From Candidatus Multiplicimicrobium inquinatum (GTDB taxonomy: Bacteria > Omnitrophota > Omnitrophia > Omnitrophales > Aquincolibacteriaceae): a DNA stretch of 64,000 nt. Shown here in pieces: positions 9,502 through 53,527 of this stretch; within the stretch, counting starts at the first letter, position 1, and the number at the start of each line of letters is the position of its first letter. Position numbers and translations under genes: made by a program. Under the pieces are notes generated by a model, which did no database searches, was not told the DNA's origin, and saw only the letters and a list, made by a program, of their open reading frames with translations. The stretch is from positions 9,816 to 73,815 of the forward strand of contig DDUN01000006.1 in the NCBI GenBank assembly GCA_002344825.1, written 5' to 3'.

Positions 9502-9575
<74 letters not shown>

Positions 9576-9588
9576 CTGCATTGTTTTT

Positions 9589-12087: not shown

Positions 12088-12479
12088 AGAATCAAGGGTG
12101 CTTTTTCGGATGACCGCTCCTTAAAGGAGAGGAAAGTCCGTGCTTCCAAGGACAGCCGTAGTGGGTAACGCCCATCTTCCGTAATATGCTGAAGGTGCAA
12201 ATCATCGGCGGAAAGCGGAACGGATCAGAGCCACAGAGACGAGTCTTTTTGAGGGTAAACCCTCGAAAAGGGTGAAACGCGGCAATCTCTACGGGGAAGA
12301 AAGGCTAAACGGAAAAGACCAGCAATGGGAAGCGGTCCGCTTCAACCCCGAGGTAACGGAGGGTTTCTTTTCGGGTAAGCCGCTAGCGAAGCTTCGTAAG
12401 GAGCTTTCAAGATAGATGGTCATCGTTTGCTGTAAAGCAAATACAGAACACGGCTTATAGAAAAGGTGCTCTTGATTCT
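12088..12479 (+). ncRNA. rnpB: RNase P RNA (bacterial type A-like)
   Basis: Contains the conserved P4 strands GAGGAAAGTCCGtGCT and ACAGAAcaCGGCTTA, plus GGGTAACGCC and AGGGTGAAACG. The P1 helix is AGAATCAAG (12088-12096) pairing with CTTGATTCT (12471-12479). The overlapping minus-strand ORF 12289..12576 is spurious. Confidence 0.85.
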
Positions 12480-22727: not shown

Positions 22728-22838
22728 TTCTAGTCCAAGTTTGCGTTTGATAGTTCCCGACTTCTTTTCTGGGGCTTATTTTTTCTTTGCCCTTTCTTTA
22801 TTTCCTCCTATAATACCGCCTTCGTCGAACCATTCCGT

Positions 22839-22909
22839 TGGGGGATGGTGTAATGGTAGCACAAAAGCCTCTGGAGCTTTTTGTCTAGGTTCGAATCCTA
22901 GTCCCCCAG
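22839..22909 (+). tRNA. tRNA-Gln (anticodon CTG)
   Basis: A manual fold works. The acceptor TGGGGGA pairs with TCCCCCA, the anticodon loop is CTCTGGA, and the T arm is CTAGG-TTCGAAT-CCTAG. The variable loop is short (4 nt). Confidence 0.75.
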
Positions 22910-23224
22910 TACTTGGCTTCTGAAAGAAGCTTTGAGCTGGGAGAGTTTTAAGCGAGCCGGTAACGGCAAGCGTACAAAGCCCTCAATTGAGTAGTAAGGC
23001 GGAGACAGCTTGGAAACGGGTTTAAATCTGTTAAAAAGCTGTATGAGAATCTTGCTTCGCAAGTATCCAGGTGGGTAGGCGCGAAGCAGAGAGTTCATCG
23101 GGTCTGGTATGGTTTCTCTTTCGAACCTTCCAATCGAATCGTTCTCTCGCAAAATGCAAGCCGTTGTACGGAGGCTTTACCGCCGACAAACCGCGGCTTT
23201 AACCAATGAGGTAAGATAAGTTCT

Positions 23225-23745: not shown

Positions 23746-23785
23746 AGACCTGTTTATCTTTTCGCAATTTTTCAAATTGCATTAT

Positions 23786-23867
23786 GCGCACGTGGCGAAA
23801 TTGGCAGACGCACTACTTTGAGGTGGTAGCGCCGCAAGGCATGCAGGTTCAAGTCCTGCCGTGCGCA
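23786..23867 (+). tRNA. tRNA-Leu (anticodon GAG), class II with a long variable arm
   Basis: The acceptor GCGCACG pairs with CGTGCGC. The anticodon loop is TTGAGGT, the variable arm is CGCCGCAAGGCATG, and the T arm is GCAGG-TTCAAGT-CCTGC. Confidence 0.8.
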
Positions 23868-24029
23868 TTTTTGCTCCGTTCTATATAAAAAGCCTTACCC
23901 TTAAAAGCTCAGACAGTCCTCGGCCTTTGGCCTGTGGAACTCGTTTTAAGGATAAGGCTTTTTTCATAGAACTCCGCTTGGTCTCAGCCTTTTTCCTTTG
24001 GAAAAAGGCGAATGGAATTTTTGCTTGTC

Positions 24030-42040: not shown

Positions 42041-42877
42041 TTAGAGGATTTCGGCTTCTTCGTCTTCGTTGATGGGAGAGCTTAATTGGCAGACTCTCTC
42101 TTGTCCGCGAATGATGCCGCGCTTTGAGTTTTCGATAAATTCTACGAAATGTTTTACTTCAGGCCCTGAGCATTCCTTCTTGATCATTTCCACGGCATTA
42201 GAAACGCTTAGCCCTGAGCGATAAAGAAGTTTATAAGCTTTTTTGATTTCGGCGCGGGTTTCAGGTTTAAATCCTGCGCGGCGCATGCCCACGACATTGA
42301 GTCCTTGCGCGACTCCGGGTCTTCCGCCACACATGACATAAGGCGGAATATCCTTGTTGAAAGCAGAGAGCGCGGAAACCATCGCCAAAGTCCCGATGTG
42401 TGAAAACTGATGAAATCCAACCATGCCCGAAATGAAAGCGCGGTCTTCGACTACGCAATGGCCCGTCAGCGAAGATTGATTCACCATGATTATGTTGCTG
42501 CCTACGATGCAGTTATGTGCGATATGGCAATAGGCCATGAAGTAGTTTTCATTGCCGATTACGGTTGCGGTGCCGGGTTCGGTGCCGCGGTGAATCGATG
42601 TGAATTCGCGGAAAGTATTTTTATTACCGATGCGCGTGAAGGTCGGCTTATTTTTAAATTTTAAATCCTGCGGCTCATGGCCGATGACGGCATGCATATG
42701 AAAAGTGTTCAGATCTCCGATCTCTGTACCGTGGCAAATCGTAACGCCATGGAAGATTTTATTGCCTGATCCAATTTTGACACCGCTGGCAATCACGGCA
42801 TTAGGACCAATCTCGTTATTGTCGCCGAGAACAACATTTTTTCCGATGCTTGCTGTGGGATGAATCTGATTTGGCAT
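42041..42877 (-). CDS. lpxA: acyl-ACP--UDP-N-acetylglucosamine O-acyltransferase
   Basis: Shows left-handed beta-helix hexapeptide repeats and the LpxA N-terminus (IHPTASIG..V.GDNNEIGPNAVI) plus a C-terminal helical domain. Confidence 0.85.
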   Translation of the reverse strand: MPNQIHPTASIGKNVVLGDNNEIGPNAVIASGVKIGSGNKIFHGVTICHGTEIGDLNTFHMHAVIGHEPQDLKFKNKPTFTRIGNKNTFREFTSIHRGTEPGTATVIGNENYFMAYCHIAHNCIVGSNIIMVNQSSLTGHCVVEDRAFISGMVGFHQFSHIGTLAMVSALSAFNKDIPPYVMCGGRPGVAQGLNVVGMRRAGFKPETRAEIKKAYKLLYRSGLSVSNAVEMIKKECSGPEVKHFVEFIENSKRGIIRGQERVCQLSSPINEDEEAEIL

Positions 42878-43180
42878 GGCGCAAATTATAGAGGGGAAGT
42901 TGTTTGCCGAGAAGCAGATTATGGTTTTTTGCCATTAAAAGGGGGTTAAATGAGCTCTTTCATAGAGGTATTAATCTAAAAGCTTTTATCATTTATTAAC
43001 TTATTCGATCAAAACCGATTTTAAGAGCACATAACTTGTTTTAAACAAAAGGGTTAAGTGTGAATAAATCGCTTTTCTCGTCTTGCAGGATGAAAATCCG
43101 TCTGTTACACTTCCGACATCTATTAAAAATGATTCACTTTCTACGGGAATTTTCTTTTCTTTTTTAAACAGGGGAAACAG

Positions 43181-46100
43181 ATGAAGACAAAAATAAGCAG
43201 ACTGCACAAGATCGCCGCAACCGCAACCGCACTGTGCGTTGCATTTACTCAGATTGCCGTTGCCGCGCCTGCTTTTTCGGTTTCCGCGCGTGAAGTGTCA
43301 TTGCCGGATACTTTACGTCTTGATCAAGCGATGCAGATCAGCGTTCCAAGCGCTGTCGCAACGGTTGATAAACTCATTCCGGGGAACGGGAAAACGATTT
43401 TTCATATTCAAACCGCGCATGGTCAGTATCAGGCCGAAAAACAGATTGAATTTTTACTTGCTCATTTGGAAAAAAACTACGGTGTTGAAACCCTTTTGAT
43501 GGAAGGTGCCTCTGAGGCGCTGAATCCTGAAATTATCAATTTTTTCCCTGAAGATCGTAAATCAACACTCGAAGTAGTTGATGCCTTTGTTCGTCATTCT
43601 GTTATTAGCGGTCCCGAGGTTTTTCTTTTAAACTCAGGTAAAACCCAAGGGCTTGGAATTGAAGATGAAGCTGTTTATGAGCAAAATTTGCAGGACTTTG
43701 TTTCTGTTGTTAACGCTCGTGATGCCGGCGGTCAATTTTTATCCAATTTAGAAATAGGAATTGAGCGTCTTGCGGCACTTTATCTTTCCAGTGATGCGCG
43801 TTCATTTCTTAAGCAAGTCGAAAGAAAAGAAACAGGGGATGTTCCGTTTGATATTTATTTGCAGCAGCTGAGATTAGCGGCTGAGAAATACGCCGGTATT
43901 AATCTGGCGGACGCGTCATGGCAGCTTTTGTGGCCGATGTTGACTCGTATTTTTACGATTGAAAAGCTGGAAAAGAAAATCGATGCGGCTGCTTTTAAAA
44001 AGCAAAAAGAAGATTTTTTAAAGGCGGTTAAGCCTTATACCTCAAAGGCGTTTGATGCCCATGACTCTCTTTACACGGAAGTCGAAAAACTTCTTAACCT
44101 CAAAGATCTAAGCGCAAGATTGCCTGACCCTGAAACGTCGGCTCTGTTTGAAGCCCTCGTGCGCGCTTTGCCGGATAATTTTAATTATGGCCGCTTTTCT
44201 TCCGTTACCGCGTTTTGCGGATTGCTGATGCTGAAAAGCCAGCTTCAAATTGAAACTTTGAGTGATGAAATTACCCGCATGGAAGATAAAATCGCGGACA
44301 GGCTAGCTGAAACTAAAAACGCAAAAGCCTTAGTCTCTGTTTTGAAAGATTATCGTTTACTGAAGAAGCTTTTTGCCCTCGAGCTTTTGCCCGCTGATTT
44401 TGACAAGCTGACGGGGTTTGTTTCAGGCGAAACTCGCGGACTGACCCCTATGGCTTCAAATGATGTTCGTCCTTCCGCGCTTGTGAAGCAGGTTCAACAG
44501 CTTAATGGTAATTCCCGCGCCAAAGAAGTTGAGTTTAAAAATGTTGCCGAGCTCGACGCCCTCTATACACTGGCGGTTCGTTTTTACGAAGGCGCACGTT
44601 TGCGTGACACGAAAATGCTTGAACGTATTGAAGAGCATCTCGATGCAACCGGGGCGGACAAGGTTGCGGTTGTGACCGGCGGATTTCACTCCGGACCCTT
44701 TGCGGAATATTTTGAAAAGCGCGGATATAACTACGCTTTGATGACGCCTAAGCTAACTACGATCGACACACAGGGTCGCCAAAATTATTTGGATGTCATG
44801 CAGATGTGGGTGGACGCACCCAAGAATGCGGCTAGTTTTAATGCGGGAAGCATTTCAGGTTCAACCATTCAGCCCAAGCCTGCAACCCCCGGCATTTTGA
44901 TGCGTCTTGCGTCAAGAGTATTGAATTCGTTTTTGTTTGGTCGTTTTCGAGATGTGTATGTCCCTCGTTTTGCAAAAGCAGCCATGATTCCCGGCGTAGC
45001 CTTGATGTCTCCCGACGCCGTTGCGCAAACTCCCGCAACTCCTCCTGCGCCTGCACCGCTAGTCGTTCCCGCGAAAATCCCAGTAGAAGCGGTTCCTGCA
45101 GGTAGCCAGACAGTTGCACGGAATATTACAACCGCCTTAAGTGCGCGTACCCCGGATTTTATTGCTGAGACTGATACGCTGACGCCCTTGCAACGAAGAG
45201 ACATCGAAAAACGGAAAGTAATTGTTTCTGACAAGATGAAAGCACTTGAAAATATTGAATTAGTTAATTGGGGAGCTCGTTTATTTGTTTCCGTTGCTGA
45301 TGTGGCTTTTAGGGATTCCGAGGATGTTGCTGTTCGAAAGAGGGCATTGGAGGTGCTGGTGGGGTTTTATCGTAAGTATGAAATGCCTGACCGAGGTGTT
45401 ACAGATCAGATTGCTCCAAGAGTGATGTCAGAGCTTAAGTTTCGCAATCAGGCTGATGTTGCCACTTTGAAAGAACCGAGAATTGCTCTTATTGATGCGA
45501 TTGTTGCGGTTACTCAGGACGCAGGGGTTCGTCAGCGTGGGCAAAGAATTTTAGATGAAGGTGCTGCTGAAAAGAAAAAAATCGCAGCTGAAGCCGCTGT
45601 GTTGCGTGCGCAACAAATTGATGCTCAGCTTGCGGTTATTGAGGATAGGCAAAAGCGTGGATATCAGAATTTATATGGTTTAATGGTTGAAGCAACTAAA
45701 GCATTAGACTTTCTAATTTCGGAAGGAATTTCAGATGCTGAAAAACAAAAGATTACACAATCTATTGCCGTGGGATTGAGTTCTCCTCAAAATTTTCCAC
45801 TTAAGCCGAGGGACTCTGATGGGGCTATGACTTCGCACAGAGGTACTTTGAGTTTAATGGCATGGACATTAGCAAAATTGCCTTCGCCAGAGGCCCTAGT
45901 CATTTTAGAGAAGTTAAAGGGAAAAACGGAAAATTTACAGCTTCAAGCAGATATCGAGCAAGTGATTCAAACTGTTAAGCGTGAACTTGCTCGCTCCGAA
46001 GCCCGTTCGACAAGCTCTGGGCAAGCGCGGCTTCAGATTGGAAAAGATTTTATTTTGAGTCAAGATACAAACGATGGCTGGACTGCGTCTCGCTATGATG

Positions 46101-49090
46101 CGGAGTTTGCACACCGCAGTTTGAATCAAGGTGACCACAATGTCACGGTAAGTTTAGTGACGCAAGGTAACTTAAGATTGGTGGAAGGCTCGTTTGAAGT
46201 ATCTTTGATGAAGGGACAGGAAGGGGCAGACAGGAAATCAATTGCCAAGATTTATTGGGATCAAGAAACAGATAAGCTGAATGTCAGCGGCCAAGGATAT
46301 CAGCTGCCTGATAACATTCGTCCGGCACTTTTCTTTAATGAAGAAGCAAACACCTTAGAAATTAGTTTTGGCAATAATTTACCCGAGGGACTTGAAAACG
46401 TAATTTTCAGAGGCTCTGATGAGTCAGATGCCATCAAGGTTGCATTTGTTCGTTCCGAAGTACGAGAGTTTAAAACACTCAATTATGTTCAGCTTCGAGA
46501 TAATGAAGTTCAATCGGGGATTCGCTCAGTTTTGACCGCAGAGTATCACTCCATCCAATTTCAATTGAATGGTGTTAACGTTGAAAGCGCGATTGAGAGA
46601 ACCTCATCGGGTAATTTCCAAAATCAAACTTCGTTGATTGCGGCGCGTGTAATTAAGATTTGGGAGGAAGTTTCAGGGAAACGGAATGACTTTGGCGGAA
46701 CAATTTATGCCGCTGTTGAAGTTGCGAAAACGGGTGGCGCGGTTACCGTTTCTATTTTTACTCCTCGCTCCGAAGCACGTGTGGATCTTGGTAGCTTTCC
46801 TCATGAAATTTCCGTGAATAGTATTAATGCTTGGGCAAGTACTTGGGCAAAGGCATCCGGGCAAAGCGACGCTTGGATTGGTGATTTTGAGATGGTCGCA
46901 AAAAATGGGGTCGATTATCCTTCGTTTAGCGGTAAGGCGAGTGTCGGTAATTTTGCTCAAACTCTTTTTAAATCAGCTCAAGCGGCGGGTGTGATTGAAG
47001 CGGAAAAAACTTTTAATACGGAAAACCTTGTTCGGCTGGGAGCTATTTTAAGACAGAATTATGAGGCGATGAGCTACGACACATTCACTCCTTCTGATAT
47101 TGAAGCGGTGCGCCCCCCGCAACCCCAGTCTACGGATGATTCTGCCCGCTCCGAACAGATCTTGGCGGCGGCAGATTACGTGCGCAATCATGTTAAGCCA
47201 CAAGAATTGCAGGTAATTATTGAAACAATACGCAAGCATGGCGAACGGGAGCTTGCTGGCTTGAAAATAAATGCCATCAATGATCCGTTGCTTGAGGCAG
47301 AGAAAGCTATCTTGGAACAAGCAGGGCTTTTATCGCAAGATCGTTTAGGGGGGGCTTGGAACAAGCGTTTGCAAGCCGGGCAATTTTTATTAGCGGTGGC
47401 TGAGGAATTGGCTCTCAAACGTTCCGAAGCGAGGAGGGATTTTGCCCTTAAATATCAGATGGGGCAATCGACCGGGAGAGTGACCGTTTACGAAATAACC
47501 AATTTTCAATTAGGTGACCCCACGTACAATAGCCTAAAAGATATTTTAGCGATGGTAGATCCAAGTGCATCAGTTGAAGCCTATAACAAGGCGCAGCTTA
47601 CAGTTAACGCGTTTACTGGAGCCGTCGCTTTGACGCTCGGTAATGCACGACTAACCGTGCACTATGTTTTTTCTGAAGATTTGTCATGGCTTAACCCAAG
47701 CACATGGGTTCAGGTTGTGCCCAAGGGCAATTTTCAGGCAGAACTGGTTATGACTTCTGCCGCTGCTGATCGCCATCTTGCTCCCAATGAATTAGTTTTG
47801 CGTCTCGTGACGGCTCGTTCCGAAGCGCGGGTATTCGAATATGTTCTTCCAGATTCTAAGGAGAATCTTTCTGTTGCTGACGCGATTAAATTAGCGTGGG
47901 GTCGTTTTGTGGAAAGTGATGCGCCTGGCGCGGATGCAACGAGTTTTCAAATAGGGTTTCGTTTTGCAGGTTCGCCGGAAGTACTCGTGGTGACGGTTCC
48001 ACGAGGTCAAGAAGCGGAAGCAATTGAATCCGTTGTTGCCAAGCAATGGGATGATGCCACTAAACGGGAAAAATTTAAATTGCCTGAACCGGTCAACGGT
48101 AAATTGCCATCGGCGAAAACGCTCGAGAGCATTTCCATTACACCGGCACCGGCTATCCGCAGCGAAAGCCGTGCGCTAACGACTGAAGAAGAACAGGTGG
48201 TTCGAGACATTCTTAAGAGTTTTACGGAAGGAATTTTAACAATCGAACAGGCTGCGGTTGTCCTTCAGCTTAATAGTTTTACCGGCGAGCAAATTCGTCA
48301 AGTTGCCGCTGAAGTGTTGGGTTCTAATCTTAAAACCAGTGAAACAGCGGATGGTGGGGCTGACCTTGATCAGCTTTTGGGATTGGTGGACAAAGCTCAA
48401 ATTGGTTTTGGAAGAGGCTTTGCCGCGTTAGATCGCGGACAATTAACCAGTACAAAAAAAGTTCGAATGAAGCCGGTTTTGATTACGGCGCTTGGATTTG
48501 TGCATCTTGTGAATAATAATCGAAGCGCGGCATTGTCTCTGATTCAGCGGATTGTGTCCTCGGGAACCAAGATTGCTTTGGCGACCGAAGGAGCTGACAA
48601 AACAGAGCTTTTTGATCAGCTCGTTGATTTACTTGTTAACCGTGAATCTGGTTTTACAGGGAGTAAGGCAGATATGAAGGGCTTGCTCCTTCAGGCTCTT
48701 GACATGCGAGCTGATGCGGATGAGTTGGCTCAGTTTGCAGATGAAAATGACGGAAAATTTTCAAAACTGGATTTGGGTATTAATAGTGGCTTATTAGCCA
48801 GCGTGAAAGGCGGTTATCCTTTTGAACTTAAAAACGGAGATAGTCCGTTAAACGGTAAGGATCTTTGGGCTGCTGCTGCTGTGGGTGCTTTGCTGCCGAC
48901 TGCTATTGCTTCGTTAGGTGATGGAGAAATTACTGAGGATGAAGCAGAAGCAGCCTTAATGACTTTCTTTAATGGCCCTCAAACCATGTTGGGATTGCGC
49001 AAAAATGCTAATGGCAGTTATGGTTTTGGACCTCTTACAGAATTGCTTCAGGCGATTGTAATTGCCCAATATATCGAAATCATGGCGTAA
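43181..49090 (+). CDS. giant (1969 aa) secreted protein of unknown function with internal repeats
   Basis: A single uninterrupted ORF. It has a signal peptide (KIAATATALCVAFTQIAVAAPA), a Pro/Ala-rich linker (AQTPATPPAPAPLVVPAKIPVEAVPAG) and five to six repeats of R-S-E-[AVS]-R each preceded by a hydrophobic strand. A promoter-like AT-rich region lies upstream and an intrinsic terminator downstream. I recognise no known domain with confidence. Confidence 0.8.
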   Translation: MKTKISRLHKIAATATALCVAFTQIAVAAPAFSVSAREVSLPDTLRLDQAMQISVPSAVATVDKLIPGNGKTIFHIQTAHGQYQAEKQIEFLLAHLEKNYGVETLLMEGASEALNPEIINFFPEDRKSTLEVVDAFVRHSVISGPEVFLLNSGKTQGLGIEDEAVYEQNLQDFVSVVNARDAGGQFLSNLEIGIERLAALYLSSDARSFLKQVERKETGDVPFDIYLQQLRLAAEKYAGINLADASWQLLWPMLTRIFTIEKLEKKIDAAAFKKQKEDFLKAVKPYTSKAFDAHDSLYTEVEKLLNLKDLSARLPDPETSALFEALVRALPDNFNYGRFSSVTAFCGLLMLKSQLQIETLSDEITRMEDKIADRLAETKNAKALVSVLKDYRLLKKLFALELLPADFDKLTGFVSGETRGLTPMASNDVRPSALVKQVQQLNGNSRAKEVEFKNVAELDALYTLAVRFYEGARLRDTKMLERIEEHLDATGADKVAVVTGGFHSGPFAEYFEKRGYNYALMTPKLTTIDTQGRQNYLDVMQMWVDAPKNAASFNAGSISGSTIQPKPATPGILMRLASRVLNSFLFGRFRDVYVPRFAKAAMIPGVALMSPDAVAQTPATPPAPAPLVVPAKIPVEAVPAGSQTVARNITTALSARTPDFIAETDTLTPLQRRDIEKRKVIVSDKMKALENIELVNWGARLFVSVADVAFRDSEDVAVRKRALEVLVGFYRKYEMPDRGVTDQIAPRVMSELKFRNQADVATLKEPRIALIDAIVAVTQDAGVRQRGQRILDEGAAEKKKIAAEAAVLRAQQIDAQLAVIEDRQKRGYQNLYGLMVEATKALDFLISEGISDAEKQKITQSIAVGLSSPQNFPLKPRDSDGAMTSHRGTLSLMAWTLAKLPSPEALVILEKLKGKTENLQLQADIEQVIQTVKRELARSEARSTSSGQARLQIGKDFILSQDTNDGWTASRYDAEFAHRSLNQGDHNVTVSLVTQGNLRLVEGSFEVSLMKGQEGADRKSIAKIYWDQETDKLNVSGQGYQLPDNIRPALFFNEEANTLEISFGNNLPEGLENVIFRGSDESDAIKVAFVRSEVREFKTLNYVQLRDNEVQSGIRSVLTAEYHSIQFQLNGVNVESAIERTSSGNFQNQTSLIAARVIKIWEEVSGKRNDFGGTIYAAVEVAKTGGAVTVSIFTPRSEARVDLGSFPHEISVNSINAWASTWAKASGQSDAWIGDFEMVAKNGVDYPSFSGKASVGNFAQTLFKSAQAAGVIEAEKTFNTENLVRLGAILRQNYEAMSYDTFTPSDIEAVRPPQPQSTDDSARSEQILAAADYVRNHVKPQELQVIIETIRKHGERELAGLKINAINDPLLEAEKAILEQAGLLSQDRLGGAWNKRLQAGQFLLAVAEELALKRSEARRDFALKYQMGQSTGRVTVYEITNFQLGDPTYNSLKDILAMVDPSASVEAYNKAQLTVNAFTGAVALTLGNARLTVHYVFSEDLSWLNPSTWVQVVPKGNFQAELVMTSAAADRHLAPNELVLRLVTARSEARVFEYVLPDSKENLSVADAIKLAWGRFVESDAPGADATSFQIGFRFAGSPEVLVVTVPRGQEAEAIESVVAKQWDDATKREKFKLPEPVNGKLPSAKTLESISITPAPAIRSESRALTTEEEQVVRDILKSFTEGILTIEQAAVVLQLNSFTGEQIRQVAAEVLGSNLKTSETADGGADLDQLLGLVDKAQIGFGRGFAALDRGQLTSTKKVRMKPVLITALGFVHLVNNNRSAALSLIQRIVSSGTKIALATEGADKTELFDQLVDLLVNRESGFTGSKADMKGLLLQALDMRADADELAQFADENDGKFSKLDLGINSGLLASVKGGYPFELKNGDSPLNGKDLWAAAAVGALLPTAIASLGDGEITEDEAEAALMTFFNGPQTMLGLRKNANGSYGFGPLTELLQAIVIAQYIEIMA

Positions 49091-49133: not shown

Positions 49134-49174
49134 CCGTCGGCGAAGCGATTTGCCGGCGGTTTTTCTTTTTTTTT
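49134..49174 (+). terminator. Rho-independent terminator after the giant gene
   Basis: CCGTCGGC-gaagcgattt-GCCGGCGG (8 bp including one G-U pair) is followed by TTTTTCTTTTTTTTTG. Confidence 0.75.
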
Positions 49175-49251
49175 GATCATTCTTTCCTCAGGCTTTAATC
49201 CCTGCTAAAATACGCGGTCTTTCAAGCGCATAGTTGCAACACGAGGTTTTT

Positions 49252-50460
49252 GTGTTTAAAACGGCCGAAGAACAGCTCCAAATCATCGGGGATGGCTTAG
49301 TTGATTTAATTTCTCGTGAAGAGTTATTGAAGAAGCTTGAGTATTCGCGCTCCAAAAACAAGCCGTTGCGCGTTAAATACGGCGCTGATCCATCCGCGCC
49401 GGACCTTCATCTCGGACATACAGTTCCGCTCCGCAAGTTACGTCAATTTCAGGAGTTGGGGCATTTGGTGGTATTTATTATCGGTGATTTTACCGCCCGG
49501 ATTGGTGATCCGTCTCACAAATCCGAGACGCGTCCTATGCTTTCCGAAGAGCAAATCAAAGAAAACGCGCTGACTTATCAGGAACAGGTTTTTAAAATTT
49601 TGGATAAATCCAAGACGGAAGTCCGTTATAACTCGGAATGGCTTGCGAAAATGAACGCGGGAGATTTTTTGACTTTAACTTCCAAATATACCGTGGCGCG
49701 CCTGCTTGAACGCGATGATTTTAAAAAACGGTATGAATCGGGCAAGCCGATTGCGCTGGTTGAATTTATGTACCCCATGCTTCAGGGGTGGGATTCGGTG
49801 ATGATTAAGTCGGATATTGAAATTGGCGGAACCGATCAGACATTTAATCTTTTGGTCGGCCGTGAATTGCAAAACCGCGAGGGACAGCCGCAGCAGGTGG
49901 TGATGACTTTGCCGATTATTGAGGGAACCGATGGAGTACAAAAAATGTCCAAATCTTTGGGCAACCATATCGGCGTTAAAGATGCTCCGAAGGAAATGTT
50001 CGGAAAAATTATGTCCATTCCCGATAGTTTGATTGAACGTTATTACCGCTATTTGAGCGCGTTGCCTAAGCCGGATGTCGAAGCGGTGGCTGTTGAACTT
50101 AAATCGGGCGTGAATCCGCGCGATATCAAAGCCCGTTTGGGTGAGCGCATGGTGGAGCTTTTTCATTCAGCCGAAGCTGGTCGGCAGGCGCATACTGAGT
50201 TTAATGAGATTTTTAAGAATAAGGGATTGCCCGATGAAATTGCGGAATTTGAAGTTGCCGCGGGAATGGATTTGATTTCTTTGCTTGTGCATTGTGCTTT
50301 GGCTCCTTCTAAATCTGAAGCAAAACGCGCTTTGGAAGCGGGTGCCGTGAAGATTGACCAGCAAAAGGCGAGCGACGCTAAATTGGTTTTAGACCTGTCC
50401 AGTCCCGTGATCCTTCAAAACGGCAAGCGCAAATTCGCGCGTGTTAAGCTGGTTTCCTGA
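49252..50460 (+). CDS. tyrS: tyrosyl-tRNA synthetase
   Basis: Carries the HIGH-like motif (DLHLGHTV), KMSKS and a C-terminal S4-like domain. A GTG start at 49252 has GAGG 4 nt upstream; the longer TTG start at 49234 is also possible. Confidence 0.85.
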
Positions 50461-50462
50461 TC

Positions 50463-51404
50463 ATGGCGCAAATTCTTCAGGTTGAAGATGTTTCAAAGAA
50501 ATTTGCCTCGCGCTTAGCTGTCAACCAACTCACTCTTTCTATTTCTTCCGGAGAAATTGTCGGATTTTTAGGCCCGAATGGTGCGGGAAAAACAACCGCG
50601 ATGCGGATGATATGCGGCTTTTTTCCGCCTTCTTCGGGGCGTATTCTGATTGATGGAGTGGATATTCAGCAGGAGCCGACAACCGCAAAAAAAATGATCG
50701 GCTACTTACCCGAAACGGTCAGTCTTTACGGTGATATGCGCGTGGTGGAGTATCTTAACTTTGTCGCGGCGGTGAAAGGAGTTGGTTTCTTGAGTCGCGC
50801 CAAAGCGGTTAAAGAAAAAATTGAGCAGTGCGGATTAGGTGACGTCAGTAAACGGCTGATCGGACGTTTATCCAAGGGCTTTAAACAGCGCGTCGGATTA
50901 GCGCAGGCTTTGCTGGGAGATCCGAAGTTACTTGTGCTGGATGAGCCAACTTCCGGATTAGATCCCAAACAAATTTCAGATATTCGCGCCTTGATTCACG
51001 GTTTAAAAAAAGATCGCGCGGTTCTTTTCTCGACGCACATTTTGCCCGAAGTGAGCATGCTTTGTAGCCGCGTGGTGATGCTGGATCAGGGACGAGTGCT
51101 GGCCAGCGGAACGGTTGAAGAGTTAGAAGCGCATTTGTCCGAAGATTTTCAAATTCAGGTGACCATTTTGGGCCGTTCCAAAACAACGGAAGCAGTGCAT
51201 GTTTTGCAGGGGATAGAAGGTTTAAAAGACATTCATTTTGTAGTTGCAGAAAGTGAACAGGTTGTTTTGACCTGTCGTGCTCCCGCCCAATTGGAATTTC
51301 GTAATGTGATTACCGAAAGATTATCAAAACAGGGTATTTCGGTGATTGAAATTAAACGTGAACAGTTAACCCTTGAAGAAATTTTCCTAAGACTTTTAAA
51401 ATGA
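50463..51404 (+). CDS. ABC transporter ATP-binding protein (GldA-like / ABC-2 type)
   Basis: Walker A (GPNGAGKTT), the signature (LSKGFKQRV) and Walker B (LVLDEPTSGLD) are present. Confidence 0.85.
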   Translation: MAQILQVEDVSKKFASRLAVNQLTLSISSGEIVGFLGPNGAGKTTAMRMICGFFPPSSGRILIDGVDIQQEPTTAKKMIGYLPETVSLYGDMRVVEYLNFVAAVKGVGFLSRAKAVKEKIEQCGLGDVSKRLIGRLSKGFKQRVGLAQALLGDPKLLVLDEPTSGLDPKQISDIRALIHGLKKDRAVLFSTHILPEVSMLCSRVVMLDQGRVLASGTVEELEAHLSEDFQIQVTILGRSKTTEAVHVLQGIEGLKDIHFVVAESEQVVLTCRAPAQLEFRNVITERLSKQGISVIEIKREQLTLEEIFLRLLK

Positions 51405-52177
51405 AAAATATTTTGTATTTAGCGCGCAAAGAATTTTCATCCTATTTTCACACCTGGCAGGGTGTGTTTCTGACATTGTTTTTCTTTTTGGTGTCCGGCC
51501 TCTTTTTTTCTTTGCTAATTTTGGGATACGCCAAGATGTCGATGGGGCAGATGGGCGAACAGTTGGCGCAAGCGGGCGTGAATCAAACTGATTATATTTT
51601 CGGGTCTTTTTTTATGAATCTTTCCACTTTGCTCATTTTTATCGCGCCGGTTTTGACGATGCGCGGCTTTGCGGAAGAAAGACGCGACCAGACCTTGGAG
51701 CTATTGTTCACCTATCCGCTTTCAGACCGCGAAATTGTATTGGGAAAGTTTCTCGGACAAGTCTGGATGTTTGAATTGCTGTGCGTGCCTTTGCTGGGGT
51801 ATGGCTTGGTGGCTCAGCTGGCCGGAGCCGATTTTGACTGGCGTGTTGTGCTTTTGGCTTTCGTTGGTTTTTGGATTTTAGGATTGGCGTATCTTTCGCT
51901 GGGGTTCTTCATTTCCACTTTAACTAAAAGCCCTGTGCTTTCCGCCGTCGCGACCTTCGGCGTTTTCTTGATTTTTTGGGTCTTGGAATGGGCTTCTAAA
52001 GTTTCGGATGGATGGATTGCCCAGTTTTTTCAGGAAGTATCGCCGCTTGATCATTACCGGTATTTTACGATGGGGCAAATTCATTTTCAGCATGCCGGTT
52101 ATTTTGTTTTAACGATTTTTTTCTTTTTAACGATGTCGGTGATGTCGATTTCCACTCGCAACTGGAAAAGTTCTTAA
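51401..52177 (+). CDS. ABC-2 family permease (GldF-like)
   Basis: Has six predicted TM helices and overlaps the ATPase gene stop. Confidence 0.7.
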   Translation: MKNILYLARKEFSSYFHTWQGVFLTLFFFLVSGLFFSLLILGYAKMSMGQMGEQLAQAGVNQTDYIFGSFFMNLSTLLIFIAPVLTMRGFAEERRDQTLELLFTYPLSDREIVLGKFLGQVWMFELLCVPLLGYGLVAQLAGADFDWRVVLLAFVGFWILGLAYLSLGFFISTLTKSPVLSAVATFGVFLIFWVLEWASKVSDGWIAQFFQEVSPLDHYRYFTMGQIHFQHAGYFVLTIFFFLTMSVMSISTRNWKSS

Positions 52178-53527
52178 ATGAAACAGCTTTGGTATCGTTT
52201 TCAATTTTTACTGGTGACGATGTTGCTGAGCGCGACGGTCGTTATGGCGTACTTAGTTGTGCGCCAAAGCAGCTGGTCTTATGACGTCACGCGCGAAAAA
52301 GTACATTCGCTTCCGGATGAAACCGTACGGGTATTGAAGCAGCTTGCGGGTAAGCCGATTGAAGTCATTGCGTTTTACCCCAAAGATGATCCGGCGCGTG
52401 AGCCCCTTACTTTGTTTCTCAAGCAGGTTCAAGCTGAGCACCCTCATTTTCAATTTAATCTTTATGACCCTGAGCGCCGGCCTAAGCTGGCTGAGCAGTA
52501 CAAAATCGATCAAAACTACACAACATTGATCCGTTCCGGAGAGCATGAAGAGCGTGTGTATTTTTTCAATGAACAAATTTTTACAAACGCGCTTTTCCGC
52601 ATCGCGCATCCCCGTAAATTGGATCTTTGTTTTACGACAGGACGGCAAGAGCTCGCGCTTGAAAGCCGTGAGCGCGAGGGCGGGGCTTCTTTGGTGAAAA
52701 ATTTACAAAACGGAGAAGTGAGTGTTTATCCGATTGTTCTCGCGCGAGATGGTATTCCCGAGTCCTGTTCCGTTACCGTGGTGGCGGGGCCGCATCAGGA
52801 GTTCACTCCCGAAGAGTTTGACAAGCTCAAGCAAGCTTTTGAAAAAGGAAGAAGCCTTGTGTTTTTGATTGATCCGATGGATTTGGGAGCGGGCCGTAAG
52901 TTTATGGATTTCTTCGCTGCTTTCGGCGTCAAAATCGGTGAAAACGTTTTAGTGGATAAGACAAGCCGGATTGTTGGCGGAGACTTTTTAATGCCGGTAG
53001 TCATGAACTACTCAAAGCATGAGGCCGTGCGCCGTTTGAGTGAGCCGTCTTTTTTTCCGGTGGTCCGCACGGTTCAGCCGTCGGTGGATGCTCCTGATCA
53101 CTTGGAAGTTTCTCCCTTAGCTTTCACCAGTGAAGGAAGCTGGGCTGAAACGGATTTAGCGCTTTTAGAAGACGGAAAGTCCAGTTTTGATGTGAAGCAA
53201 GACGTCGCGGGGCCACTGCCTATTGCAGTCGCGGTTGAGACTAAAAAAGGGGACGGCGGGCGCATGGTGATTGTGGGCGACAGTGACTTTATGACGAATG
53301 GTTATTTACCGCTTTCACAGAATTTAAATTTTGCCATGGAGATATTGAAGTGGGCGGGGCGCGACAGCCGGTTTATTCATGTGCATACGCGGCGCGCGGA
53401 GTTCAAACCGCTGTTGCTGAAAGAGTTTGAAAAGCAGGGATTGCTTGTTTTACTTTTACTTTTTTATCCGTTGGCGCTATTTATTCCGGTCGGGGTTTAT
53501 TTAATTATTCGTTCACGCACGGCTTGA
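52178..53527 (+). CDS. ABC-transporter auxiliary component (GldG-like, ABC_transp_aux)
   Basis: An N-terminal TM helix, a large extracytoplasmic domain and a C-terminal TM helix. It sits immediately after the ABC-2 ATPase/permease pair. Confidence 0.55.
   Translation: MKQLWYRFQFLLVTMLLSATVVMAYLVVRQSSWSYDVTREKVHSLPDETVRVLKQLAGKPIEVIAFYPKDDPAREPLTLFLKQVQAEHPHFQFNLYDPERRPKLAEQYKIDQNYTTLIRSGEHEERVYFFNEQIFTNALFRIAHPRKLDLCFTTGRQELALESREREGGASLVKNLQNGEVSVYPIVLARDGIPESCSVTVVAGPHQEFTPEEFDKLKQAFEKGRSLVFLIDPMDLGAGRKFMDFFAAFGVKIGENVLVDKTSRIVGGDFLMPVVMNYSKHEAVRRLSEPSFFPVVRTVQPSVDAPDHLEVSPLAFTSEGSWAETDLALLEDGKSSFDVKQDVAGPLPIAVAVETKKGDGGRMVIVGDSDFMTNGYLPLSQNLNFAMEILKWAGRDSRFIHVHTRRAEFKPLLLKEFEKQGLLVLLLLFYPLALFIPVGVYLIIRSRTA

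Follow-up and report, generated by a model that had tools for sequence, protein, structure and literature searches.

A delimiter-punctuated, almost cysteine-free family of giant proteins in Omnitrophota and its possible processing as a polyprotein

The widespread phylum Omnitrophota consists of ultra-small bacteria that are probably parasites or predators, and giant genes are its most conspicuous unexplained feature. The open reading frame (ORF) considered here, at positions 43181-49090 of a 64,000-nucleotide stretch of Candidatus Multiplicimicrobium inquinatum (contig DDUN01000006.1, positions 9,816 to 73,815; this whole stretch is the window of the text below), is a small member of this known but unexplained class of giant proteins. 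Giant ORFs of Omnitrophota have been described (Seymour et al. 2023, PMC10066038), as have giant multi-enzyme proteins, named "Archaeovorins" (West-Roberts et al. 2023, bioRxiv 10.1101/2023.11.21.568195), and "multi-enzyme metabolic clusters" of the phylum (bioRxiv 10.64898/2026.06.07.730766). These three papers cover multi-enzyme content, signal peptides, transmembrane helices and the possibility that C39 or S8 domains cleave the chains, and one of them finds the N-terminal regions mostly without identifiable domains apart from C39/S8 peptidases. Cleavage of the giant proteins has been proposed, with its sites stated to be unknown (10.1101/2023.11.21.568195); the published work asks whether the proteins act whole or are cut up, and the missing cleavage points are said there to block both structure prediction and functional dissection. 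The window protein and its relatives share several features with the Archaeovorin-like giants: the phylum, a signal peptide and/or transmembrane helices (with post-translational cleavage proposed there), unrelated enzyme domains tiled on one chain (sugar-nucleotide enzymes, hexokinase, PGM and HAD; here in the relatives and in a longer allele of the window gene, on contig L001), and mostly unannotatable sequence that diverges rapidly. They differ in size, since the published proteins have at least 10-30 thousand residues whereas the window protein has 1969 and the listed relatives 1-8 thousand.

In mechanism, the nearest analogues of the family are two other systems. In the MARTX toxins of Vibrio and relatives, unrelated effector or enzyme domains likewise form a variable, recombining array between conserved ends, a protease domain of the same chain cuts them apart (as is proposed here), and one effector, RRSP, is itself a Tiki-fold endopeptidase. 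In contrast to MARTX, the window protein has neither RTX repeats nor a cysteine protease domain, no type I secretion genes lie nearby, its delimiter is a strict pentapeptide, and its signal is of the N-terminal Sec type instead of a C-terminal type I secretion signal; the likeness lies in the logic and not in a common ancestry. Viral polyproteins also have short, strict site motifs with free flanks between unrelated products, and a consensus specific to each lineage, but the present family is cellular, chromosomal and multi-copy, its processing is only proposed, and the protease fold differs. Membership of the window protein in either group was excluded, given that it has no such Pfam domains and that its neighbours are housekeeping genes.

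The family of the window protein is very large and restricted to Omnitrophota; its members are modular giant proteins, almost without cysteine, each built as a signal-like helix, a head, a series of punctuated cassettes and a tail. As read from the sequences, the chance that such a chain is an exported polyprotein cut at the delimiters between its cassettes, with the head as candidate protease, seems to us about even. A preliminary description had credited the window protein with no recognisable architecture; the layout given here, with residue numbers in brackets, is common to thousands of proteins.

43181..49090, + strand: coding sequence of the giant ORF, with an ATG start, 1969 amino acids and then a stop codon
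43199..43267, + strand: N-terminal hydrophobic helix (7-29) after a basic n-region, ending A-V-A; Kyte-Doolittle peak 1.86
43334..44815, + strand: head domain (52-545), an alpha/beta core split by a helical insert, with a probable Tiki/TraB/erythromycin-esterase-like fold
43667-44650, + strand: all-helical insert of the head, about 330 residues (163-490)
45014..45100, + strand: Pro/Ala-rich linker (612-640), where most family members have their first delimiter
45101..45991, + strand: cassette M1 (641-937), helical; a divergent copy lies elsewhere in P0002; no Pfam match
45992..46006, + strand: delimiter 1, RSEAR (938-942)
46007..46450, + strand: cassette M2 (943-1090), which holds a 436-bp stretch, 46023-46458, that is duplicated in L001
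46451..46465, + strand: delimiter 2, RSEVR (1091-1095), the junction where L001 has 703 codons inserted
46466..46765, + strand: cassette M3 (1096-1195), which recurs in P0004
46766..46780, + strand: delimiter 3, RSEAR (1196-1200)
46781..47419, + strand: cassette M4 (1201-1413)
47420..47434, + strand: delimiter 4, RSEAR (1414-1418)
47435..47815, + strand: cassette M5 (1419-1545), without similarity to the other cassettes
47816..47830, + strand: delimiter 5, RSEAR (1546-1550)
47831..48157, + strand: cassette M6 (1551-1659)
48158..48172, + strand: delimiter 6, RSESR (1660-1664), ahead of the conserved C-terminal domain
48173..49087, + strand: conserved C-terminal domain (1665-1969), its last two-thirds Rossmann-like alpha/beta in the model, then an amphipathic terminal helix ending ...YIEIMA-COOH

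The extent of the family emerged from homology searches. A first search returned 27 proteins of 1.1-3.4 thousand residues, with which about the first quarter of the window protein is shared; four of them have a named source, three being Omnitrophica/Omnitrophota and one (P0011) labelled Geobacteraceae. The precomputed Pfam domains of the 27 are all different, comprising hexokinase, UDPGP, PGM, glutamate dehydrogenase, UDP-glucose dehydrogenase, alpha-amylase, PEP-utiliser and HATPase. When a profile of the shared N-terminal region (about the first 545 residues; alignment A1) was run against 1.84 billion cluster representatives, 9,832 matched at E <= 1e-3 and 6,787 at E <= 1e-30, so that the protein is far from the stand-alone case it had first been taken for. 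The head match is N-terminal in nearly all of the best 150 representatives, whose lengths run from 0.5 to 7.8 thousand residues. A survey with one genome per GTDB species confirmed 291 loci; 80 of them were listed, and every record among these with a named phylum is from Omnitrophota. Several genomes have three or four copies, often in tandem. At loci L003, L014, L040, L052, L070 and L079, giant ORFs beside the matched gene are rich in delimiters; the neighbour in L003 is a paralogue, P0021, and in the other five it ends in the style of the family (...SA or ...AA). Within the window, ORF 43181-49090 is the sole one to match the head profile (E 8e-219) and the only one with more than one delimiter motif. 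Its full-length product has no significant match in Pfam, NCBIfam, PADLOC, PHROG or the PDB sequences, in keeping with the earlier statement that no nameable family fits.

What stands out in these chains is a pentapeptide, the delimiter. The window protein has six, at residues 938, 1091, 1196, 1414, 1546 and 1660, four of them RSEAR and one each RSEVR and RSESR. Counted with the pattern R-[SAPTQ]-E-x-R, such sites number 160 against 6.8 expected in the window protein and its 27 homologues, and 934 against 44 in 133 further cluster representatives; with a stricter pattern, used for 83 genome-derived ORFs, they number 467 against 5.2. The enrichment across the family is thus about 20- to 90-fold. 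A logo of 1,090 sites reads R100, S72/A20, E100, L26/V22/A17/M9, R100, with flanks that are almost information-free apart from a slight bias towards a small residue at -1. The first delimiter lies at a family median of residue 622, just behind the head, and successive delimiters are spaced at a median of 205 residues (interquartile range 105-394). Doubled delimiters, RSEARSEAR, occur in P0002 (residues 985-993) and P0005 (965-973), and P0081 has at residues 5076-5160 a run of 17-residue tandem repeats with one delimiter each (SSRKELRTAQNSHAELP), that is, arrays of sites that are nearly free of cargo. Within M4 of the window protein lies a decayed delimiter, RSEQI (1323-1327; nucleotides 47147-47161), and the DNA repeat family D1 includes 47142-47155; M4 may be two former cassettes that fused once the final Arg was lost.

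The segments between delimiters are autonomous, mobile cassettes that recur whole in other orders. In nine homologues none of 14 Pfam-matched domains has an internal delimiter, and several sites lie 0-6 residues from a domain edge. P0001 has a complete hexokinase whose limits are exactly the delimiters RSELR (1197) and RSEAR (1649), and in comparisons with ordinary hexokinases of 430-490 amino acids typically about 88-100% of this cassette is aligned; a homologue search with it returned ordinary hexokinases only and no giant proteins. Comparison of 942 cassettes all against all gave 165 pairs aligned over at least 80% of both members, and 31 of these pairs have unrelated neighbours on both sides. 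A cassette of 1,108 amino acids, for example, is the second in P0020 and the fifth in P0128, at 57% identity over its full length. M3 of the window protein is found again at residues 823-927 of P0004 (E 3e-40, full length), with delimiters on both sides, in another position and among different neighbours. The sequence pattern of M1 suggests HEAT-like repeats. None of the six window cassettes matched a known family, whereas the relatives and the longer allele L001 (hexokinase) do carry enzyme domains.

This composition also bears on the idea, raised in the preliminary description, that the ORF encodes a giant adhesin, or an S-layer-like surface protein, made of repeated units. Its signal-like N-terminus, large size, low cysteine content and Pro/Ala-rich linker, which had been placed near residue 630 and lies at 612-640, would suit such a protein. 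The C-terminal repeated units that had been reported are in fact mutually dissimilar modules between which only the delimiter recurs: no significant similarity was found among the six cassettes, and a search of the ORF for DNA repeats, whether tandem or long and direct, returned nothing besides stretches of 14-17 nucleotides that code for the motif (RSEAR). A Pfam scan returned no adhesin, Ig-like, cadherin, RTX, dockerin or S-layer domain, and the modules of the relatives are metabolic enzymes, not adhesion modules. An adhesin or S-layer-like protein is therefore quite improbable. The companion suggestion of an enzyme scaffold came closer, as homologues carry complete hexokinase, glutamate dehydrogenase, UDP-glucose dehydrogenase, PGM and UDPGP modules; alpha-amylase and PEP-utiliser modules are found in relatives too.

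The motif might instead be incidental, if cassettes were exchanged at the DNA level through a joint of about 15 nucleotides that mediates recombination and leaves RSExR as a by-product. Related genes do differ in the order and content of their cassettes, the sole DNA repeats of the ORF are the 14-17 nucleotides around the motif, tandem double sites exist, and codon usage is skewed in that the first Arg favours CGY and Ser is mostly TCN. At the sites, however, every synonymous codon occurs: Arg is encoded by all six of its codons, the fourth codon varies, AGY codons for Ser occur but are rare (there is one AGC site in the window gene), and the Glu codons (GAA/GAG 67/33) and those of the last Arg are near background. 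Position 2 alternates between S, A, P and T, all of which have NCN codons, and the TCN bias at Ser fits this alternation, as selection for a small residue at the amino-acid level would give. The use of all synonymous codons, with background usage at Glu and the last Arg, shows that selection acts on the peptide and not on a DNA site. Moreover, the one rearrangement that is recent and traceable, between the window and L001, used a 436-bp repeat and not a 15-mer, and we consider a DNA-level origin of the motif improbable.

What the peptide does is suggested most strongly by those family members that are poor in RSExR, since they carry alternative short motifs with enrichment of the same degree.

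P0081: [R/H]xELR, 18 sites
P0053: RxExR, with the second position free, 8 sites
P0151, P0086 and P0159: small-[A/S/N]-S-L-G (ASLG), 20 sites against 2.9 expected in P0151
P0025: R-x-S-A-A, 7 sites against 0.07 expected
Genome locus L034: L-S-D-S-R, 11 sites against 0.1 expected

The ASLG and [R/H]xELR proteins have their first site at residues 581-618, again right behind the head. A strict motif that lineages have swapped for another at equivalent places points to a site of recognition or processing and not to a passive linker, and we regard this as the strongest argument for a role of that kind. The chief competing explanation is an uncleaved scaffold of beads on a string, in which the N-terminal helix would serve as an anchor, RSExR as a hinge or docking peptide bound by the head, the tail or a partner, and a Tiki-fold head as an esterase or peptidase acting on an external substrate such as the prey envelope. 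The literature favours membrane-anchored, surface-exposed giant proteins in Omnitrophota, the conserved domains at both ends of the chain suggest that it functions intact, the Tiki superfamily includes esterases and non-enzymes, and the invariant residues of the head are constant whatever the delimiter class. Yet a passive linker would need no invariant R, E and R amid information-free flanks, and equally strict motifs exchanged between lineages at the same places are typical of recognition sites. In addition, some cassettes belong to the glutamate dehydrogenase and UDP-glucose dehydrogenase families, which normally function as homo-oligomers. On balance we hold an uncleaved scaffold to be less likely than a processed polyprotein.

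If the delimiters are cut, the first candidate for the enzyme is the head of the same chain. The TIKI superfamily comprises Tiki1/2, TraB/PrgY, GumN, EreA-C, Bcr135/136, ChaN, HopBA1 and RRSP, and a faint resemblance to Tiki, TraB and GumN had been noticed in the preliminary description, which pointed to two His motifs separated by LLMEGA. All three elements are present, namely GKTIFHIQTAHG (H80), LLMEGA (E108) and VAVVTGGFHSG (H503), and the resemblance appears to hold at the level of the fold through the 28-residue His-Glu spacing, the GxxH motif and sub-threshold Pfam matches in the Tiki clan. An AlphaFold2 model built on alignment A1 (pLDDT, the predicted local distance difference test, 82; pTM, the predicted template modelling score, 0.75) has core strands at 60-78, 104-107, 156-159, 494-500 and 517-523, and in this model the head has an alpha/beta fold whose core, a parallel beta-sheet, has helices on its flanks, as in the TIKI superfamily. 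Four of the residues are located as follows.

43418..43420, + strand: codon of H80 (QTAH80G), putative catalytic His, where the first core strand ends
43502..43504, + strand: codon of E108 (LLME108G), putative catalytic Glu, where the second core strand ends
44603..44605, + strand: codon of the invariant R475, which precedes H503 by 28 residues
44687..44689, + strand: codon of H503 (TGGFH503), the second His, in the GxxH motif

Invariant in alignment A1 are Q77, H80, E108, E161, Y166, N169, R475, GGFH503, P523 and Y536. H80 and E108 are conserved in 24 of the 24 aligned sequences and in all delimiter classes, and they follow the predicted strands 72-78 and 104-107; the invariant G500-G501-F502-H503 follows strand 494-500. 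As in the superfamily, then, a His after strand 1 and a Glu after strand 2 lie 28 residues apart, the same distance as between H85 and E113 of Bcr135 and between H3902 and E3930 of RRSP (PMC6254334), and a late strand is followed by a second His, in GxxH, which has an Arg about 28 residues ahead of it. R475 precedes H503 by 28 residues, and the substrate-recognition residue R4001 of RRSP precedes H4030 by 29, which leads us to infer from spacing that the two Arg residues are equivalent. Unlabelled figures tabulated for the head with Tiki-family proteins are 9.8 for HopBA1, 9.8 for 2rad (a Bcr135-type "succinoglycan biosynthesis" protein), 9.2 for EreC, 8.9 for a TraB-family protein, 8.6 for ChaN, 8.6 for 2qgm (of the same type as 2rad) and 7.0-7.2 for PMT and RRSP; HopBA1, the 2rad/Bcr135 type, EreC, the TraB family, ChaN, PMT and RRSP are all counted in the TIKI superfamily (PMC6254334). 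The big helical insertion between core strands is a further shared trait. Such a large insertion is also found between the core strands of erythromycin esterases.

The searches at the level of sequence gave weak support. Around H503 there are sub-threshold matches to PF04187 (ChaN, of the Tiki superfamily; profile positions 166-203), with a best E of 3e-4 in one family member, below the gathering score, and 0.068 in the window protein, and family members also give sub-threshold matches to PF05139, DUF5694 and DUF5682. No curated Tiki-clan model (PF01963, PF05139, PF04187 and others) matches the head significantly. An hhalign comparison of the head core with Escherichia coli YbaP, of the TraB family, was not significant (E 0.12), with the H503 region aligned to the VGALH motif; the head profile and a core-only profile from which the helical insert had been removed gave chance matches only among the PDB sequences and no Tiki-family member; and Foldseek of the head model against PDB gave a best E of 0.25, with Tiki-family entries only in non-significant rows. 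The head differs from the superfamily in this lack of a significant sequence, profile or Foldseek match, in the Thr that replaces the first Glu (Asp or Glu in some subfamilies), and in its fusion to kilobases of cargo, which to our knowledge has no parallel in any TIKI member. At codon 78 (43412-43414) the residue is Asp or Glu in P0024, P0025, P0026, P0103, P0104 and P0151, which use other delimiters or few RSExR. Overall, the head is likely to be a member of the Tiki fold. Its invariant residues are spaced as in characterised members, the endopeptidases Tiki and RRSP among them, which makes the head plausibly a hydrolase; a hydrolytic function is probable.

The N-terminus and the composition of the chains point out of the cytoplasm. 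The helix of the window protein (residues 7-26 in the AlphaFold2 model, with a disordered stretch at 24-51) fits a Sec-type signal peptide or a signal anchor. The clear Sec signal peptide of the preliminary description stands as a signal-like helix, an assignment that rests on a reading of the sequence, and secretion of the protein is plausible, given this helix and the cysteine depletion; the helix may be cleaved and the protein exported. Cysteine makes up 0.08% of the family (474,564 residues) against 1.2% of ordinary neighbouring ORFs (141,018 residues), a depletion of about 15-fold, and 0.93% of the other genes of the window (13,096 residues). The window protein has two in 1969 residues, one of them inside the signal helix, and 66 of 160 family proteins, several of them 5-6.4 thousand residues long, have none beyond residue 60. 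Even the hexokinase cassette has zero cysteine compared with 2.1% in ordinary hexokinases. Low cysteine together with a signal-like N-terminus is, from what is generally known of secreted bacterial proteins, tied to an extracytoplasmic fate, so the two features suggest an extracytoplasmic destination or transport in an unfolded state. In particular, the near-absence of cysteine argues for an extracytoplasmic life even of the kinase and dehydrogenase cassettes.

Taken as an exported polyprotein, the chain would leave the cytoplasm via Sec as a pro-protein or polyprotein, and the pentapeptides R-[S/A]-E-(L/V/A/M)-R would be the processing sites of a site-specific endopeptidase, for which the head of the same chain is the prime candidate. 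Cleavage would free each cassette as a protein of its own, either at the surface of the cell or in the direction of a host or prey cell, and in relatives some of the freed cassettes would be complete metabolic enzymes. Cassettes would be gained, lost and reordered at the delimiters, with the consequence that orthologous loci linked to tyrS carry different cargo. More broadly, we propose tentatively, at somewhat less than even chances, that Omnitrophota have a cellular polyprotein system in which exported, cysteine-free chains are cut at lineage-specific sites (RSExR, LSDSR, ASLG, RxSAA) by a Tiki-fold head or a partner protease, freeing dozens of interchangeable cassettes outside the cell or into host or prey, and in which the delimiters are the cleavage points that have been sought.

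Several points weigh against the polyprotein reading. Processing is throughout an inference from sequence. The Foldseek and sequence-profile searches fell short of significance for members of the Tiki superfamily, and in the window protein and the main class the canonical first Glu of the Tiki 2His/2Glu set (E-x-H) is Thr at position 78 (QTAH). Delimiter class does not follow head similarity, the heads of the ASLG class being 27-38% identical to one another and up to 45% identical to those of the RSExR class; the invariant residues of the head are identical in all delimiter classes, and no co-variation of class with head was found. This independence makes it less likely that the head itself reads the motif, and a specificity encoded in the head is not evident. 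The window gene has no delimiter directly after its head, the first being at residue 938. Four of the six window cassettes are small (100-148 residues) with no fold assigned, and their usefulness as free proteins is not evident. The ATP- and NAD-dependent enzyme cassettes of the relatives are hard to square with an extracytoplasmic destination, and topology predictions for the family (from simple counting of hydrophobic segments and enzyme cassettes) are inconsistent, a difficulty of topology and cargo that has also been noted in published work on Omnitrophota giant proteins. Depletion of the motif in ordinary proteins would be expected if a protease of the cytoplasm recognised it; the ordinary neighbouring ORFs have about 7 sites against about 3 expected, which is no depletion, at low power.

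A Tiki-like head, a recurring delimiter, a conserved C-terminus and tail and the depletion of cysteine go unmentioned in the three giant-protein papers, and a literature search on the motif, polyprotein processing, a Tiki head and cysteine depletion in Omnitrophota found no description, within a coverage that is incomplete and leaves an earlier description possible. These features of the family therefore appear to be new. They provide handles on the giant proteins, namely a strict delimiter that partitions the chains, a head of probable hydrolase fold as a candidate processing enzyme, a conserved tail and C-terminus, and the near-absence of cysteine, and they make it directly testable whether and where giant proteins are cut. 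If the chains are processed, they would form, on a vast scale, a bacterial equivalent of the polyproteins of viruses, and their "dark" content would become tractable cassette by cassette; in a polyprotein system of this kind the delimiters would allow giant proteins to be cut in silico into their mature products. If processing is not confirmed, the motif still marks domain boundaries for thousands of unannotated proteins.

The conserved end of the chain is the tail. In 16 of 16 homologues with an alignable C-terminus, a tail segment of about 200-420 residues follows the last delimiter (cut points 209-421 from the end). Its sequence diverges fast, and in an alignment of 17 tails the only invariant residues are the R, E and R of the delimiter; a word-indexed homologue search with the C-terminal domain alone found no match, although homologues exist. 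The model, confident for about 200 residues (pLDDT about 90), predicts a Rossmannoid fold as in the HAD superfamily. The DxD nucleophile motif of HAD is missing from the tail, where strand 1 reads VLIT, then ALGF. The extreme C-terminus is more constant: 111 of 160 family proteins end in Ala (AA 48, SA 43, MA 11), with hydrophobic residues at -5 and -11 and A, S or M at -2 (for example RSA, KSA, SAA and TMA; IMA in the window protein, whose last 12 codons are 49052-49087). Family proteins without a terminal Ala are probably, for the most part, cut off at contig ends, and the conserved extreme C-terminus may be a recognition tag. The internal delimiter R-x-S-A-A of P0025 resembles the C-terminal tail of the family.

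The native length of the window protein is possibly greater than its ORF indicates. Contig L001, which is 99.98% identical to the window across the locus, encodes a version of 2,672 amino acids with 2109 extra bases (703 codons) between two 436-bp direct repeats (L001 10843-11278 and 12952-13387; window 46023-46458). The additional segment comprises a delimiter-bounded transmembrane hairpin, a complete hexokinase and a second copy of M2, and both versions are in frame. The window allele is either a recombinational deletion between the repeats or an assembly collapse. Absence of 2109 bp, relative to so similar a contig, between 436-bp repeats is the signature of a collapsed repeat, and the ORF as a whole might be taken for an assembly artefact or a decaying pseudogene. 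This is very improbable indeed: the frame is open across 5.9 kb, an independent protein cluster (P0028) matches residues 1-969 with 100% identity, purifying selection on head, delimiters and tail is evident, and the longer form would be the same kind of gene even if the repeat has collapsed.

At the locus itself the boundaries of the gene are as first described: the 1969-residue ORF has lpxA, divergent, and tyrS on its flanks, an AT-rich region upstream and a terminator.

42041-42877, - strand: lpxA-type acyltransferase gene (Hexapep and Acetyltransf_11), the divergent upstream neighbour
42878..43180, + strand: AT-rich intergenic leader of 303 bp between the divergent lpxA and the giant ORF, G+C 34%
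49134..49169, + strand: intrinsic-terminator-like hairpin and T-run; the hairpin, 49134-49159, has 11 pairs (7 G-C) and is followed by TTTTTCTTTT
49234-50460: tyrS, the downstream neighbour of the giant ORF

The leader has a G+C content of 34% against 45.7% in the coding sequence, and a purine-rich, Shine-Dalgarno-like stretch, GGGGA, lies 8 nucleotides 5' of the ATG; no sigma-70 consensus was matched on the + strand of the leader (42878-43180). Both a search for homologues and a check of their neighbourhood had been suggested, and they gave many homologues and a conserved chromosomal position: in the window (49234-53527), as at loci L002 and L004, the family gene is followed directly by tyrS and by genes for an ABC ATPase, an ABC-2 permease and a GldG-like protein, after which L002 and L004 have a DUF4340 gene. 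In one tyrS-linked relative rpsA-fabF-lpxA also lie upstream. The heads of the tyrS-linked relatives in this position are merely 38-40% identical, and their cargo is wholly different, with glutamate dehydrogenase in one and UDPGP in the other. No conserved protease or secretion genes were found beside the family loci, the sole constant being the position upstream of tyrS and the ABC-2 cluster. In the window the neighbours of the giant ORF are housekeeping genes and the ABC-2/GldG-like transporter, and the window as a whole is ordinary chromosomal DNA, with rpsA, fabF, aromatic amino-acid genes, three tRNAs and an RNase P RNA. The RNA genes, which are unrelated to the giant gene, are a class A RNase P RNA of bacterial type (12098-12473, 172 bits) and tRNA-Met (9502-9576), tRNA-Gln (22838-22910) and tRNA-Leu (23785-23868).

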